A stretch of DNA of 63,557 bases, counting the filler. It is 9 parts of 9 records of this genome, joined end to end, with 100 filler letters (N's around TTAATTAATTAA, not from the genome) between each part and the next. Parts side by side here need not be neighbours in the genome. Positions count along the whole stretch, not along the records: positions 58,175 to 63,557 come from SRR31156797_63789; 8 more parts are not named here. One strand, written 5' to 3'. Positions 57,290 through 63,557 of this stretch are shown one piece after another. The notes under the pieces are model-generated. The model saw only the letters and a list, made by a program, of their open reading frames with translations. It was not told where the DNA came from and ran no database searches. Position 1 is the stretch's first letter; each line of letters begins with the position of its first letter. The position numbers and the translations under genes are program-made.

Positions 57290-58074
57290 ATGACAAGCGA
57301 CAATGCCGGCATCCACAATCGACCGGAAGAACTCCTTCAGAAACTTATAAGGTTTGATACAACAAACCCTCCGGGCGGAGAAATCGAATGCATCAATTTC
57401 ATCAAGGAACTGCTGGAAACCGAAGGCTTTGAAACAACTATTGTCGCCCGCGATCCTGAGCGTCCTAATCTGCTGGCCCGCTTGAAAGGGCAGGGGACGG
57501 CGGCGCCTTTTCTCATGTACGGCCATGCCGATGTCGTTACCACAAAGGGACAGGATTGGACTGTTCCGCCGTTCGAAGGAACAATCAAGGATGGATTTGT
57601 CTGGGGCAGGGGCGCCTTGGACATGAAAGGCGGTCTGGCCATGATGATATCAGCTTTTTTAAAATCAAAGGCTGAAGGTTTCACGCCCGCGGGCGACGTG
57701 ATTCTCTGCGTTGTCAGCGATGAAGAAGGCGGAGGCGATTTCGGGGCCAGGTTTCTTGCGGATGATCATCCAGATCTATTCGAAGGAGCCAGGTATGCAA
57801 TCGGAGAATTCGGCGGATTTTCCATGAAAGTGGGCAAGCAAAAATTCTTTCCCATCATGATTTCAGAAAAACAGATTTGCTGGATCAAAGTCACGGTGCG
57901 GGGCCCGGCCGGGCATGGTTCCCAAATAATGCGCGGCGGCGCCATGGCCAAGGTTGGTCGTATGCTGACATTGCTGGATGAAAAACGGCTTCCCATACAT
58001 ATCACGCCGGTAGCGGAAATGATGATCAAGGGCATGGCCGAAGCCTTGCCGCAACCGAAAAAAATGCTGTTGCG
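57290..58074 (+). CDS. M20/M25/M40 metallopeptidase (ArgE/DapE-like), truncated
   Basis: Intact HADVV, GRGALDMKG, SDEEG, IGE. Confidence 0.93.
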
Positions 58075-58174
58075 NNNNNNNNNNNNNNNNNNNNNNNNNN
58101 NNNNNNNNNNNNNNNNNNTTAATTAATTAANNNNNNNNNNNNNNNNNNNNNNNNNNNNNNNNNNNNNNNNNNNN

Positions 58175-58225
58175 ACCACCAGAGTGCTTGTTCATCGCGC
58201 TCTTAGAAGACATTCCGTAGAACTT
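58175..58225 (-). other. guaC: Start-less internal fragment of guaC marking the prophage att junction
   Basis: Minus strand reads KFYGMSSKSAMNKHSGG (GMP reductase FYGMSS motif) and begins abruptly from AT-rich non-coding DNA. Confidence 0.75.
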
Positions 58226-58274
58226 AAAACAAAAATAACAAAACAAATAAAAACAAATACTTACAAATATTTAA

Positions 58275-59062: not shown

Positions 59063-59734
59063 TTAGCATGGACTTACAGCTCTGTATTTCTTCAGTACTT
59101 TTCGGATGTTTTCCCACAGTTCTTCTAAATCTCGATACTCGAAGTAAAAGCCGCTATCAACAAACTCTGCGCCACTGGATGAGAACCACGGTTCACCCTC
59201 TCCTTTTCCACCAATACCCAATTCAAACTTAGCCGTGAACTTGCCACCTTTTGGACGTACTTGAAATTTGATGTGATATGTCCAGTGACTTGCAGCTGAG
59301 CAACGTTCGTAATGTGCAGGCAACCAGCCTGAATCGTAGAAGTTAGGTAAACAGTTTGAAGGAAGTTGATATTGAGAAGGTGGAAGTGTTGGCAGTGAAC
59401 TACGAAGTTTGTTTGCCATTTGGTTGAAGGCATCGATGTAGGCTTCTTTTATCTGTGCCGCTTTCTTTCCAGTAAAACCCATGACTAAGAACATAAATCC
59501 GTCTTTGGTCATTTCAAAAGCATTACGTAACTCACCTTTTTTATCTCTATATTCAACGTGCGCAAAATTGCGCGCGTTAAATTCATCAGAACATTCAAGG
59601 GTTCTAAGCTTACGAACTACATCACGATGCTGCTTGTTAAATGCTTCTGCGACTTTTAATGAATTGGTACGAATTTCTTCGCCTTGATTAAAGACGAGAT
59701 CAGATACAGTCAGGGTAAGGGAAGTTGTCGGCAT
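59063..59734 (-). CDS. Rha family phage regulatory protein (putative antirepressor)
   Basis: TNSLKVAEAFNKQHRDV, MTKDGFMFLVMGFTGKKAAQIKEAYIDAFNQM. Confidence 0.93.
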   Translation of the reverse strand: MPTTSLTLTVSDLVFNQGEEIRTNSLKVAEAFNKQHRDVVRKLRTLECSDEFNARNFAHVEYRDKKGELRNAFEMTKDGFMFLVMGFTGKKAAQIKEAYIDAFNQMANKLRSSLPTLPPSQYQLPSNCLPNFYDSGWLPAHYERCSAASHWTYHIKFQVRPKGGKFTAKFELGIGGKGEGEPWFSSSGAEFVDSGFYFEYRDLEELWENIRKVLKKYRAVSPC

Positions 59735-59788
59735 GATGGCCTCCTTGAGTATGATTTTTAAATCACCACTCGGAGGTTCCTAATCTTC

Positions 59789-59869
59789 GGGTGGTGAACT
59801 GGACAAGGTTAGGAACTACCGCACTCAAGGAAACGGCGCGCCGAAGCGCCCTCGCCCAGCCCACCATAA
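59789..59869 (-). ncRNA. C4-type antisense RNA
   Basis: UAUGGUGGGCUGGGCGAGGGCGCUUCGGCGCGCCG...CCUUGAGU...GUUCCUAACCUUGUCCAGUUCACCACC cloverleaf; its loops are complementary to flanking a/b targets. Confidence 0.85.
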
Positions 59870-59960
59870 TTCAGATAGTACGTTTTCTACACGAAACGCC
59901 TATGTTTGGGTGTGCCGAAGCCGCACATAAAAAAACCAGCAAAACGCTGGCACTTATGTG

Positions 59961-60047
59961 CCTTGAGTAACTAATCAGGGTTCCTAATCCTGACACTGGA
60001 TTTTGCCAGTGCCGTTAAATGGTATATATGTCAAAGATCGGTGTCAA
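59961..60047 (-). promoter_or_regulatory. Promoter and a1/b1 target leader of the c4-rha transcript
   Basis: TTGACA (60047-60042)-17 nt-TACCAT (60024-60019); GGCACTGGCAAAATCCAGTGTC hairpin; a1 TTAGGAAC (59987-59980); b1 ACTCAAGG (59968-59961). Confidence 0.8.
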
Positions 60048-60111: not shown

Positions 60112-61143
60112 ATGGATAAAGAAGCTTTAAGATTGGACTACGAAACTAAGAAGCACAAAGCAACTCGTTTTATCTCATCAGTAAAAGAACAATTGAATGT
60201 TCTTATTACATCAAATGATATTACTTTAGGCACACCTCTCGAAAGTCGAATCAAGTCTATTCAATCGATAGAAGAGAAGCTCGTACGAAAGAACAAAACT
60301 ATTGGTTCTGTAGTCGAGTTAGATGATTTTATCGGACTAAGAATTATCGTCCTATTTAAATCAGATTTAGATAAAATCCATCAACTCATCAAGAAAAATT
60401 TTGATGTTGGAGAAGAAGAGAACGTAGCTGGACGCCTTAGAGATGACCAATTCGGCTATCAATCTACTCACTTTGCGATCAGCTTGCCTAAACAATGGCT
60501 TACTGTTCCAGCTATGACTGATTTAGGCGGCTTAAAAGCTGAACTACAAGTGCGCACGTTATCTCAGCACATCTGGGCTGTAGCATCTCATAAGCTTCAA
60601 TATAAGCAAGAAAATAATGTTCCAACGACGCTGAGACGTTCCATCAATAGAGTGTCGGCGCTACTAGAAACTGTTGATTTGGAGTTTGAACGAGTTCTTC
60701 AGGAACGCACTGAGTATAGAGAAGAATTACAACATACCACCTATGAATCTGAATTTAACGTAGATGTTTTAGAAGCCCTCTGTGATGAGTACTTACCTAA
60801 AGCCAATAAAGATGAAGGTAACGAAGAGTTCTCAACAATATTCAAACAGCTTGTTGAAAACAACATTAATTCTAAAGAGAGGTTTATTGCGCTAATTAAA
60901 GACAACATGGAATTTGTTCTAAAGGAGGAGGCTAAAAACATAGATAGAATATTAAGAGATAGGGAAGACCTAGATGCTAACTTTGACAATAATGAAGATA
61001 GCTATAAAAATGAAATACTCAATGAAGTATCTCGTGCTAATCGTGGCGTCTTTTACTCACACGTTGGATTGGTTAGACGATGTTTGTATTGGAAGTTCCC
61101 CAATTTAAGTCGTATTACACATTCAAGAAAACATACAAAGTAA
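60112..61143 (+). CDS. RelA/SpoT synthetase-domain protein (small alarmone synthetase-like) with C-terminal extension
   Basis: SRIKS...EK, DFIGLRI, GYQSTH, ELQVRT, W...SHKLQYK; no HD hydrolase domain. Confidence 0.92.
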   Translation: MDKEALRLDYETKKHKATRFISSVKEQLNVLITSNDITLGTPLESRIKSIQSIEEKLVRKNKTIGSVVELDDFIGLRIIVLFKSDLDKIHQLIKKNFDVGEEENVAGRLRDDQFGYQSTHFAISLPKQWLTVPAMTDLGGLKAELQVRTLSQHIWAVASHKLQYKQENNVPTTLRRSINRVSALLETVDLEFERVLQERTEYREELQHTTYESEFNVDVLEALCDEYLPKANKDEGNEEFSTIFKQLVENNINSKERFIALIKDNMEFVLKEEAKNIDRILRDREDLDANFDNNEDSYKNEILNEVSRANRGVFYSHVGLVRRCLYWKFPNLSRITHSRKHTK

Positions 61144-61225: not shown

Positions 61226-62053
61226 TTGACAGAAGAAGAATTCGATAAGCTACATCCATGGCCTGATGCAAATGGCGTTAGCTCTCTGTTTAGGTTTATG
61301 TCCATTAACAAGGAAAGACCCGAAATTTTAAACACTCTGTTTCTTGAAAAGAAGTTATACCATTCACTAGCTACAGACTTTAATGACCCTTTTGAATGCA
61401 GACCACACTTTACCCTAGACGGAGTGATTAATAATATAGATGACATTAGAAACCACTTAGTAAAGGTTGCCATGAATAATAGATTTACGATGGAAGACGC
61501 AACAAACCTCATCGTTAATGCAATGAAGCAACCAGGATACCTTGAAAAATGTATAAAAGATTCGAACGCCACTATGCTTAACAACGTTAGAATCTGCTGC
61601 TATACAACAGACAAAGAAAACCTTTTATTTTGGGCTCATTACGCGAACTCACACAAAGGCTTTTGTGTCGAACTAGATGCAACATCACTCCCTGTTTCAT
61701 ACGCTTATAAAGTTCAATATAGTAATGAATACCCCAAAGCAGTATATCCGGTACCGGAAGATAGAAGAGCATTCAGATATGCATTAGTCAAATCAACAGA
61801 GTGGGAATATGAAAATGAATATAGGACCATTTTTCTCCCATCAGCGCCTAAACACCCAGAATTCCCCCATGATGGAACATCATTGATGATGAAATCTAGC
61901 ACTATAAAAAATGTTTATCTTGGTGCTCAAATTAGCGAACAAGACAAAGAAACCTTATTAAGCATCATCGATAAAAGTGAATTTAATCCTGTAATCTGGC
62001 AAGCATCACTATCTGAGAGTTCTTATAGTTTGAATTTTGAGAAGGTTCGATGA
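61226..62053 (+). CDS. DUF2971 domain protein
   Basis: FNDPFE, LLFWAHYANSHKGFCVE, KSTEWEYENEYR, VYLG. Confidence 0.88.
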   Translation: MTEEEFDKLHPWPDANGVSSLFRFMSINKERPEILNTLFLEKKLYHSLATDFNDPFECRPHFTLDGVINNIDDIRNHLVKVAMNNRFTMEDATNLIVNAMKQPGYLEKCIKDSNATMLNNVRICCYTTDKENLLFWAHYANSHKGFCVELDATSLPVSYAYKVQYSNEYPKAVYPVPEDRRAFRYALVKSTEWEYENEYRTIFLPSAPKHPEFPHDGTSLMMKSSTIKNVYLGAQISEQDKETLLSIIDKSEFNPVIWQASLSESSYSLNFEKVR

Positions 62054-62071: not shown

Positions 62072-62106
62072 AAAGATGAGCAACGAACGATGCTCATCTT
62101 TTCTTC
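62072..62106. terminator. Hairpin terminator between DUF2971 and the convergent small ORF
   Basis: AAAGATGAGCA-8 nt-TGCTCATCTTT followed by TCTTC. Confidence 0.7.
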
Positions 62107-62226
62107 TTAATTTAACTTGAAGTACCAGTGTTCCCTTCCAATATCCCTCGCAAAATCCAAGCCCCAACCTCCCCACCAAGCAAATAGTAAGGCCAACACT
62201 GTGAACATGATTAAACAAGCTTTCAT
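62107..62226 (-). CDS. 39-aa hydrophobic small protein (not in the ORF track)
   Basis: AAAGGAGA SD; MKACLIMFTVLALLFAWWGGWGLDFARDIGREHWYFKLN*; ends at the hairpin. Confidence 0.6.
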   Translation of the reverse strand: MKACLIMFTVLALLFAWWGGWGLDFARDIGREHWYFKLN

Positions 62227-62329
62227 ATAAATCTCCTTTGTTTGTAGAAGCTCATATGTATAAGCGCTAGTTTTTTATAAGTGTGCGGAGACTTTTGCCC
62301 AAAATGCGGATTAGTAAAAAGACAGGGGT

Positions 62330-62554
62330 TAGTCTGTTGAACAGACTACTGGGTTACGGGGTACTATGTACGCAATACGTTTTATAACGTGACATACCGT
62401 AAGCATACGAGTATTATATGTATAATGCTTTTGATCTTACTACTAGATACCCTTTAGCAACAGGGCGAGACTTCGCCCTGTTGCTAAAGGGTATCATGGA
62501 AAAACGTTTTAAAATCAGTCAGTTAGCGTATCATCCAGTCTGTTCGACAGACTG
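62330..62554. repeat. Palindrome triad: two 19-bp palindromes around a perfect 23-bp inverted repeat
   Basis: TAGTCTGTT-G-AACAGACTA (62330-62348); GATACCCTTTAGCAACAGGGCGA-GACT-reverse complement (62446-62495); CAGTCTGT-TCG-ACAGACTG (62536-62554). Confidence 0.9.
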
Positions 62555-62644
62555 CGAGTAGCATACAAACTAATACAATTGATAGTACTATGAGCTATAG
62601 TAGTACGAGATACGACGTTAGAGCACGGTACAGTACTACTATAA

Positions 62645-62673
62645 TTGACATGTAGGTCAGAGATAGGCATGAT
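62645..62673 (+). promoter_or_regulatory. Sigma70 promoter of the peptide-DUF4760 unit
   Basis: TTGACA-17 nt-CATGAT. Confidence 0.7.
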
Positions 62674-62735
62674 GTATGTACACAGTAACTACTAGTTACT
62701 ATGCCGAAAGGCACTAAAACAAGGGGAGATACAAT

Positions 62736-62768
62736 ATGAAACTATACCGCGAAGAAGACTGGTTCTAA
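62736..62768 (+). CDS. 10-aa peptide MKLYREEDWF
   Basis: AAGGGGAG SD 7 nt before ATG; lies between a promoter and an intrinsic terminator. Confidence 0.65.
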   Translation: MKLYREEDWF

Positions 62769-62800
62769 GAAGATAACCAGCTAATAATTGAATTTAGAAG

Positions 62801-62827
62801 AAGAGCACTAAAAACGTGCTCTTTTTT
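62801..62827 (+). terminator. Intrinsic terminator between the peptide ORF and DUF4760
   Basis: AAGAGCAC-TAAAAAC-GTGCTCTT-TTTT. Confidence 0.8.
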
Positions 62828-62844
62828 GTGCAGTCAGGAATAGT

Positions 62845-63417
62845 ATGGAAACACTACTAAAATCTTTCCTAGAAGATCATCCAACAGTATACTCGACCTT
62901 AATTGCTGCTCTACTTGCAGCCATATTCGCTTTCTTTACATTGCGACATAACATCAAGTCTACTCGTATCAAAAACGCTTTAGATTTTGAGTCTACATAC
63001 AAACATAACGATAAAGTTGTTGCTTCAACTATCGAAATCAAAAAAATTCTAAGTAATACCCATGAGATACCAGTAATGGAATGGGGACTAGAACAGAATC
63101 AACTAGAAAATGAAGCCCTCCACTTAAGTACCGTCATGAATGAATGGGAGCGTTGTGCCAACGCTGTTTTTCACAAGGTATACGACGAAGATTTTCTGTA
63201 CGGTACATACGGCAGTACAGTCATATTTCTGATTACACATCTGCATCCGTACATAATTAAACGGCAAGAACATAATCCCCGCGTGTACGCAAAATTTTGC
63301 TGGTTAGCTCTAAGATGGCAAATAAGAAGATCTAATGAAGATGGGGATAAAATAAACAGTGCACTAAAAGAATCAAGGGACAAACTGCACTTATATCTTA
63401 ACACTTTAAAAAAATAG
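62845..63417 (+). CDS. DUF4760-like protein with N-terminal TM helix
   Basis: TM STLIAALLAAIFAFFTL; MNEWERCANAV...YDEDF...Y..F..L...W pattern. Confidence 0.75.
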   Translation: METLLKSFLEDHPTVYSTLIAALLAAIFAFFTLRHNIKSTRIKNALDFESTYKHNDKVVASTIEIKKILSNTHEIPVMEWGLEQNQLENEALHLSTVMNEWERCANAVFHKVYDEDFLYGTYGSTVIFLITHLHPYIIKRQEHNPRVYAKFCWLALRWQIRRSNEDGDKINSALKESRDKLHLYLNTLKK

Positions 63418-63494
63418 TCAGGTTGCTATAGTTACCGGACTACTGCCCTCCTTCTGGCGAGATTAGATTCGATACTCGATGCGAGGACTGATTC

Positions 63495-63519
63495 AAAGCC
63501 ACCTACAAGGTGGCTTTTT
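63495..63519 (+). terminator. Intrinsic terminator after DUF4760
   Basis: AAAGCCACC-TACAA-GGTGGCTTT-TT. Confidence 0.8.
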
Positions 63520-63557
63520 CACATCAGTAACTAAACCCCAAATCCCCCACATCCAGA

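Follow-up and report, generated by a model that had tools for sequence, protein, structure and literature searches.

When a conserved short open reading frame (ORF) and an intrinsic terminator stand in front of a bacterial gene, do they always form a switch that acts in cis, or can they also encode a ten-residue partner that acts in trans? The question is raised by a gene of the DUF4760 family found near the end of the window (the whole stretch of DNA analysed here, 63,557 nucleotides (nt) long), where it is preceded by a ten-codon ORF and a terminator. Few unexplained cargo genes of prophage defence hotspots are as common as DUF4760, and every close family member examined carries an unannotated mini-gene of this kind, selected for its peptide, together with a terminator. 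We tentatively propose that the locus is a cassette with two products, in which an abundant micropeptide is made ahead of a fixed terminator, a scarce DUF4760 protein is made behind it, and the peptide acts on the protein. This reading is ranked first among those considered, although it stops a little short of being probable.

The cassette lies entirely on the plus strand. It begins with a sigma-70-like promoter (62645–62673, +), recognised by consensus match and by reading of the sequence, in which TTGACA (62645–62650) and CATGAT (62668–62673) are separated by a 17-nt spacer and 10 of the 12 consensus positions are matched in a promoter scan. A perfect TATAAT (62640–62645), which could serve as an alternative -10 element, overlaps this site. 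The promoter is graded as plausible only, because the region has no more promoter-like sites (five) than shuffled sequences have (4.8). Two hairpins follow in the 5′ untranslated region (UTR; 62684–62713, +), seen in the sequence, in a repeat-pair search and in folding: an 8-1-8 palindrome, AGTAACTA-C-TAGTTACT (62684–62700), and a smaller element, TGCC-GAAA-GGCA (62702–62713). They may act as an mRNA stabiliser or as an operator. A Shine-Dalgarno (SD) sequence, GGGGAG (62723–62728, +), is placed 7 nt 5′ of the ATG of the micro-ORF (62736–62768, +), which encodes MKLYREEDWF, ends in TAA and contains the core E-E-(D/N)-W that is conserved ahead of DUF4760.

Thirty nucleotides past the micro-ORF comes the first intrinsic terminator (62798–62828, +), identified as a repeat pair and by folding, with arms at 62798–62808 and 62816–62826, a 7-nt loop, a T-run and a predicted free energy of about -13 kcal/mol. 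It was missed by a consensus terminator scanner, probably since its stem runs into the T-run. The DUF4760 ATG is found 17 nt further on, with an SD-like AGGA (62836–62839, +) 5 nt 5′ of it; a recognisable SD at this position is missing in many relatives, as judged by eye. Inspection of the window by eye revealed no sigma-70-like promoter in the 17 nt between the first terminator and the DUF4760 ATG, and the gene thus appears to depend on read-through. A TAGAAT-like hexamer found at the base of the terminator in the EENW classes of relatives was considered as a promoter and rejected, its presence being explained by pairing with the U-tract. The DUF4760 gene itself (62845–63417, +) encodes 190 residues, and the cassette is closed by a second terminator (63495–63521, +), formed by a hairpin at 63495–63517 and a T-run. 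Past this terminator, at the very end of the window, CCCCAAATC is repeated 2.1 times in tandem (63536–63554), which may be close to the prophage–host junction. The promoter-like site, hairpins, SD, ORF, terminator, DUF4760 gene and second terminator had all been listed in an original prediction made from the DNA, and each was found at the position given there. What carries the unit beyond chance is its conservation and not any single consensus match.

Conservation was assessed in three loci from species-representative genomes, 28 from IMG/VR and 21 from metagenomes, and in those of E. coli EcPF40, Vibrio phage E8498 and a Pantoea plasmid. With the window and a locus recovered by a motif scan (L064), 57 loci were assembled, and five with less than 150 nt upstream were set aside. 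The resulting 52 loci (37 distinct leaders) comprise the window, three genome, 25 viral and 19 metagenomic loci, EcPF40, L064, E8498 and the Pantoea plasmid, and they are carried by prophages of Vibrio, enterobacterial and halomonad type, by a plasmid and by a K139-like phage. For the genome contigs, a scan with a single protein gave no confirmed locus and an alignment-based scan gave the three included here; no close DNA relatives of 62230–63557 were found in phage and plasmid collections. All 52 loci have, ahead of DUF4760, an SD-led ORF of 9–21 codons with the core [DE]-[EQ]-[DN]-W, the SD being present in each leader. A terminator follows the short ORF (sORF) in 51 of the 52 according to a script, its stem beginning 14–35 nt past the stop codon; in the exception, L025, the hairpin is present and the U-run is interrupted. 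It had been proposed at the outset that an SD, a small ORF, a terminator and synonymous variation be looked for upstream of homologues, and each was encountered there. The outermost parts of the leader are less constant: promoter-like sites of the relatives are differently built and lie 45–105 nt 5′ of their sORF, and the 5′ UTR hairpin sequences of the window are not kept in L004 or L005, which have other hairpins.

The peptides fall into several classes, namely YREEDWF (window, L004 and L005), YREEDWGLS, YREEDWGVF-x-SK, EENWDV, NEENWGF, GEEDWG(V/F) and SEEDWLV, to which a Rheinheimera class (LEQDWG...) and the peptide of Vibrio phage E8498 (YQEEDWGFDIKS) are added. Three halomonad-type loci contain DEDWGV(S/Y) twice inside one ORF, an internal duplication that has been retained. 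The C-termini vary widely (F, GF, DV, GV, LV, GLS, GVFSSK, WFT and DIKS). On a tree of the DUF4760 proteins the peptide classes track the clades, which indicates that leader and gene are co-inherited, and only about two to three independent D/N switches are seen in the core. In the P2-like prophage of E. coli EcPF40, the cassette is flanked by portal gene Q and the parM/replication-A region, and its sORF is MTVRRIYSEENWDV; RefSeq has no coding sequence annotated for this mini-gene, in line with the expectation that annotation would overlook so small an ORF.

The converse association was examined by scanning IMG/VR with two back-translated patterns for YREEDW followed by a codon beginning with G or T, which gave 48 matches. 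Thirteen of them are in an SD-ATG-short ORF-terminator context, and all 13 precede DUF4760 (ten confirmed by hmmsearch, three on contigs already known through the protein). The other 35 are chance matches, 16 inside ORFs of at least 85 codons, 17 in short frames lacking a start codon and the last two in a 24-codon frame without a terminator. In these IMG/VR motif scans, the E-E-(D/N)-W motif in the sORF context was linked exclusively to DUF4760. At the level of sequence comparison, the micro-ORF and terminator are firmly established as an obligatory front end of this DUF4760 subfamily.

The pattern of substitution tells what is being conserved. Among 24 distinct cores, changes within E-E-(D/N)-W are limited to GAA/GAG, GAC/GAT, D/N and, at two loci, E-to-D, and synonymous variation extends to the neighbouring Y, R, G and V codons. 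In a comparison inside the GVF-x-SK class, L014 and L027 are separated by six synonymous and no non-synonymous changes in 16 codons, with DUF4760 proteins that are 73% identical, and L018 and L027 differ at seven synonymous and two non-synonymous codons. The preponderance of synonymous differences shows that selection acts on the peptide. Judged from these codons, purifying selection on the full-length peptide, the part beyond the Trp included, is no weaker than on DUF4760, and the mini-gene is, by the same evidence, a real and probably translated gene.

Two loci carry the sORF more than once. L004 has two tandem promoter-and-sORF units, MLRHEEDWF (638–667) and MLRREEDWF (795–824), with a terminator after the second only; the two ORFs are alike at 27 of 30 nt, the three differences being one synonymous, one non-synonymous and one in the stop codon, and the 85 nt upstream of each match at 59 of 88 positions. 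L109, which belongs to another DUF4760 subfamily, has MREVVGGF twice (1124–1150 and 1221–1247), with one synonymous difference and a single terminator after the second copy. Each of these tandem copies has its own SD. Intact extra copies that lack a terminator of their own are hard to account for by a cis switch and easy to account for by peptide dosage.

Transcription of the region is touched by one metatranscriptome run, which contained 12% of the sampled words and whose contigs cover 62614–62973. One contig, 98% identical, runs from 62614 to 62861 across the terminator. The support it gives for read-through is weak, because DNA carry-over is possible and the contigs do not reveal transcript ends, strand or level. 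A second contig of the same run has the same sORF with a different 5′ UTR, which suggests two alleles or two copies in the community.

The protein encoded behind the terminator matches Pfam DUF4760 (PF15956) over residues 20–158 (profile positions 2–141 of 141; E 7.9e-27; 94.6 bits, cut-off 25), and its 31 homologues all carry PF15956. The closest are from Vibrio and Aliivibrio (86–67% identity), and the homologue alignment has an invariant block, NEWERCAN, together with several invariant K/R and W positions. The AlphaFold2 model (mean predicted local distance difference test score 91.5) is composed of eight helices: a long N-terminal helix holds a hydrophobic stretch and is followed by a helical domain. 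Basic residues stand after the hydrophobic stretch, which suggests that the domain behind it is cytoplasmic. With this model, Foldseek searches of the PDB and BFVD returned nothing at E ≤ 0.001; a sequence-profile search of the PDB gave nothing below E 0.09, and the ESM Atlas yielded only unnamed clusters below 0.9. The best matches of an exhaustive structural aligner were the EP domains of the plant immune proteins EDS1, PAD4 and SAG101 (Z 10.0, 9.8 and 8.1; next 6.4), with 119–137 residues aligned at a root mean square deviation of 3.1–3.7 and sequence identity of only 7–13%. With this aligner, Z values below about 13 are common among helical folds, and the resemblance is a lead from a predicted model, which shows neither relationship nor function. 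The PHROG family of DUF4760 has no assigned function.

The preferred reading joins these observations as follows. A single promoter would give rise to the two products of a self-contained prophage cargo cassette. The ten-codon gene would be strongly translated, giving MKLYREEDWF, one of a family of peptides built around the core hydrophobic-x-E-E-(D/N)-W. Most transcripts would end at the terminator 30 nt past the micro-ORF, and only those that read through would reach the membrane-anchored DUF4760 gene, so that the terminator would work as a fixed valve rather than a switch, leaky and unregulated, setting much peptide against little DUF4760. The peptide would bind DUF4760 as its functional partner, being a ligand or an antidote for the cytoplasmic helical domain. 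A short-lived and continuously made peptide would couple the activity of DUF4760 to ongoing host gene expression, and host shut-off by an infecting phage would be a plausible trigger for exclusion or abortive infection, with DUF4760 as the effector. We infer this toxic or defensive role of DUF4760 from its genomic location only. The argument from layout on which the original prediction was built, that is, an abundant short product, a terminator and a scarce effector, is retained in this proposal.

In its most specific form, which we consider unlikely but worth stating, the peptide would be a labile micro-antidote. Made in large excess from the terminated transcript, it would hold the membrane-anchored DUF4760 inactive; upon shut-off by a phage it would decay within minutes, and DUF4760 would then act on the membrane and abort the infection or exclude the phage. 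The E-E-(D/N)-W peptide would in that case be the smallest proteinaceous antitoxin known to us. The arrangement would then represent a new two-part class of module, serving prophage defence or addiction and found widely in P2-like, lambdoid and P1-like prophages.

Several points weigh against a cassette with a peptide that acts on DUF4760. We know of no bacterial precedent for a hydrophilic peptide of 9–21 residues as a stoichiometric partner or antidote, and peptides of this kind are expected to be degraded fast. A conserved short ORF followed by a terminator is classically a cis-acting attenuator, so the prior favours a cis switch. The order sORF-terminator-gene is invariant in 52 of 52 loci, which cis action requires and trans action merely permits. 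No model of PADLOC-DB v2.0.0 was matched by DUF4760, and no functional test of DUF4760 was found in the literature searched. Lastly, the unit is not a property of the whole Pfam family. Of 401 gammaproteobacterial genomes sampled, 18 had a DUF4760 match, and 22 loci were inspected, two from unpublished genomes being left out; besides L109, described above, only L125 (a 23-codon ORF ending in GGGGF, with a terminator) and L108 (an SD-led ORF, no clear terminator) have something comparable. The other 19 of the 22 showed no such unit in a crude scan with guessed gene starts, and the DUF4760 copy of a T4-like Yersinia phage has no such sORF.

A more distant case is L082, a 3.6-kb ColE1-type Klebsiella plasmid that encodes a 309-residue DUF4760 protein, with a 22-codon ORF ending in REIDLGIF upstream of the coding sequence at 1046. 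REIDLGIF is similar in pattern to REEDWGVF, without the Trp, and is followed, immediately ahead of the start codon, by a hairpin that has no U-tract. In this sample, the E-E-(D/N)-W leader belongs to the subfamily around the window's protein, and the other subfamilies have other mini-genes or none.

The strongest competitor, possible although it falls further short of being probable, is a leader peptide that works in cis. Here the nascent E-E-(D/N)-W stretch would stall the ribosome on a signal, the position of the ribosome would decide the fate of the terminator and the free peptide would have no function; the signals proposed are an insult directed at ribosomes, scarcity of Glu-, Asp/Asn- or Trp-tRNA, or a small molecule, and DUF4760 would be made only then. 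The layout is that of a classical attenuator (SD-led short ORF, gap of 14–35 nt, intrinsic terminator, gene), invariant in the 52 loci, and the conserved residues form a short block behind variable N-termini, as in arrest peptides. Such a switch depends on a terminator that can be opened, and this was evaluated by thermodynamic prediction in 16 leaders. The terminator was the minimum-free-energy structure both without and with a ribosome footprint (with the A site on the Trp codon or on the stop codon, or the P site on the Trp codon) and persisted in every constrained fold. In leaders cut before the 3′ arm, the partners of the 5′ arm were weak and inconsistent, at -1 to -9 kcal/mol (window, -1.3; L004, 0.0). 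When the leaders were extended by 100 nt of 5′ UTR, the stabilisation from 5′-arm pairing was no different from that of shuffled arms in most of the 16 loci; it lay near or below the shuffled range in four (L002, L007, L014 and, more weakly, L001), with partner sites that differ, and the 5′ arm remained unpaired in the window and L004 even under these conditions.

Pairings of the sORF codons count partly for a switch and partly against it. A hairpin between the core codons and the sequence after the stop recurs by eye, and it beats shuffles in only one of the 16 loci (L012, where 0 of 1000 shuffles reach it); in L109, sORF codons form a 10-bp pairing with the stretch next to the terminator. 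Because the core codons are similar to the purine-rich 5′ arm, they can pair with the 3′ arm. Summed over the 16 loci, this complementarity amounts to -155.8 kcal/mol against -121.2 ± 9.4 kcal/mol for shuffled cores, a weak sign since the loci are related, and in the window it is not significant (p = 0.31). No consistent antiterminator was found in the 16 leaders with constrained, truncated and 5′ UTR-extended folds and shuffled-arm controls. A trp-type switch governed by ribosome position is unsupported by these predictions, because no antiterminator mutually exclusive with the terminator was found in the 16 leaders; the leader-peptide attenuator that the original prediction had offered as its alternative lacks, in these predictions, the structure it would need. 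The remaining evidence points the same way. The stop codon, 14–35 nt from the stem, is too distant for masking by a terminating ribosome; the residues after the Trp are conserved as amino acids, and the distance from Trp to stop, 1–10 codons, fits arrest at neither; and the extra sORF copies without a terminator stay intact. It is because no switch structure was found, selection covers the whole peptide and extra copies are kept that the two-product cassette is ranked above the cis switch, despite the strong prior for the latter.

It is improbable that the peptide is functional with a target other than DUF4760, for example as a mimic of an acidic-aromatic tail that competes for a docking site on a host or phage protein, of the type used by the C-terminus of the single-stranded DNA-binding protein (SSB), with DUF4760 as separate cargo. 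Selection on the whole peptide would suit such a role, and some classes end, as EEDWGF or EENWGF, in three acidic positions, a hydrophobic residue, G and an F with a free carboxylate, which resembles the SSB tail DDDIPF. The comparison had been anticipated from the acidic tail ending in Phe of the window's peptide: the acidic-Trp core E-E-(D/N)-W is indeed conserved, whereas the terminal Phe is not (DV, GV, LV, GLS, GVFSSK and WFT being found in its place), so the SSB-tail idea is weak and does not hold as a general rule among homologues. The motif in its sORF context always accompanies DUF4760 (13 of 13), and the peptide classes follow the DUF4760 clades. A likeness of NEENW to the NDENY of the ssrA tag bound by SspB was also considered and rejected, the position equivalent to N3 being variable (R, S, D, G, Q, L).

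Hardly credible is a type III toxin-antitoxin logic, in which the short terminated transcript would be an RNA antitoxin and the ORF incidental: the layout resembles that of ToxIN (short transcript, terminator, effector), and the putative 151-nt transcript, which folds into the 5′ hairpins and the terminator, is more structured than shuffles (z = -4.4), but there are no tandem repeats in 62200–62845, where only short, chance-level direct repeats occur, no Rfam family was matched in 62230–63557, no ToxN or AbiQ match for DUF4760 appears among the Pfam, PADLOC and structural matches listed, and the 5′ UTRs of different peptide classes are 38–60% identical, with spacers likewise poorly conserved, whereas the sORF is kept through synonymous changes. 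A ToxI-like RNA antitoxin, to which the original prediction had likened the transcript, is thus strongly disfavoured, because conservation is at the level of the peptide and not of the RNA and tandem repeats are absent.

The surroundings of the cassette are those of a prophage. The last 5 kb of the window are prophage-type cargo, including a gene for an SRAP peptidase. A Rha-family regulator gene (59063–59734, -), recognised by Pfam/PHROG-type annotation, has upstream of it, at 59787–60025 (-), a C4 antisense RNA and an isrK-like RNA, which score 67 and 55.7 bits respectively and so exceed their Rfam gathering scores. By these matches, Rha, C4 and isrK are a P1/P7-type immI-like immunity module, which marks the region as prophage. 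An a1/b1 target-like site is also present upstream of the Rha gene. Two PADLOC candidates follow, a RelA_SpoT-domain gene (60112–61143, +; PDC-S33, 7.9e-15) and a DUF2971 gene (61226–62053, +; PDC-S31, 1.4e-43), so that candidate defence genes lie one after another immediately ahead of the DUF4760 cassette. The placement of the unit in prophage cargo near defence-like genes, as first suggested, is upheld by these neighbours.

Other features of the cargo region were noted in passing. A 39-codon hydrophobic ORF (62107–62226, -; MKACLIMFTVLALLFAWWGGWG...) has an AAGGAG SD 7 nt upstream and may encode a small membrane protein; no family was matched, and the ORF ends at a terminator hairpin (62072–62101) shared with the end of the DUF2971 gene. 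Two near-identical 17-nt palindromes of the AGTCTGTT-N-AACAGACT type (62331–62347 and 62537–62553) lie 206 nt apart, and a perfect inverted repeat (23 bp, 4-nt loop) without a U-tract is found at 62446–62495. The repeat and the palindromes, all unique in the window, may serve as operators or as a recombination site, or may be a remnant. Near the left edge of the cargo, a 278-codon ORF (57290–58126, +) runs into what is probably a masked (N) stretch at about 58080–58170, visible as a run of X in the translations of this ORF and of another at 58127–58246 (-).

In the full-text literature, with supplements of papers after August 2026 and bioRxiv supplements outside its scope, no description of an sORF-terminator-DUF4760 unit was found. 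'DUF4760' appears 1199 times in the cargo lists of the P2 hotspot in supplementary file 5 of Rousset et al. 2022 (PMC9122126); the parts of that work consulted gave no mention of the mini-gene and no functional test, and its main text contains neither 'DUF4760' nor 'leader'. The eight full-text matches to the peptide strings were due to chance, and the paper matching 'DUF4760', PMC9964261, is unrelated. The literature on K139 and E8498 gave no match, and no 'leader peptide' was found in that on P2-like phages, hotspots and defence. The mini-gene adds a conserved family of bacterial micro-ORFs to annotation, and DUF4760 cloned alone, as a cargo gene without its front end, would probably mislead. 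Whether the peptide acts in cis or in trans, the outcome would be new biology for a widespread phage module.

Among known systems, the closest in layout are attenuators of the trpL, hisL and pheL type and the terminator-based leaders of some resistance genes, in which a promoter, an SD-led short ORF and a terminator a few tens of nucleotides later precede a promoterless gene. The cassette differs from trp-type attenuators in that no antiterminator was found and there are no regulatory codon runs, the core codons being two for Glu, one for Asp or Asn and one for Trp; moreover, the peptide is under selection over its full length, and some extra copies have no terminator of their own. With ToxIN and AbiQ it shares residence on mobile elements and a terminator that sets a plentiful upstream product apart from a scarce effector; unlike in those systems, the upstream product would be a translated peptide and not a repeated RNA, and the downstream protein is predicted to be membrane-anchored and helical, with no RNase of the ToxN fold among its matches listed. 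The DUF4760 cargo listed for the P2 tin/old hotspot (PMC9122126) belongs to the same protein family, whereas the window's copy is found in a Vibrio-type prophage and its peptide is shorter and ends in WF.

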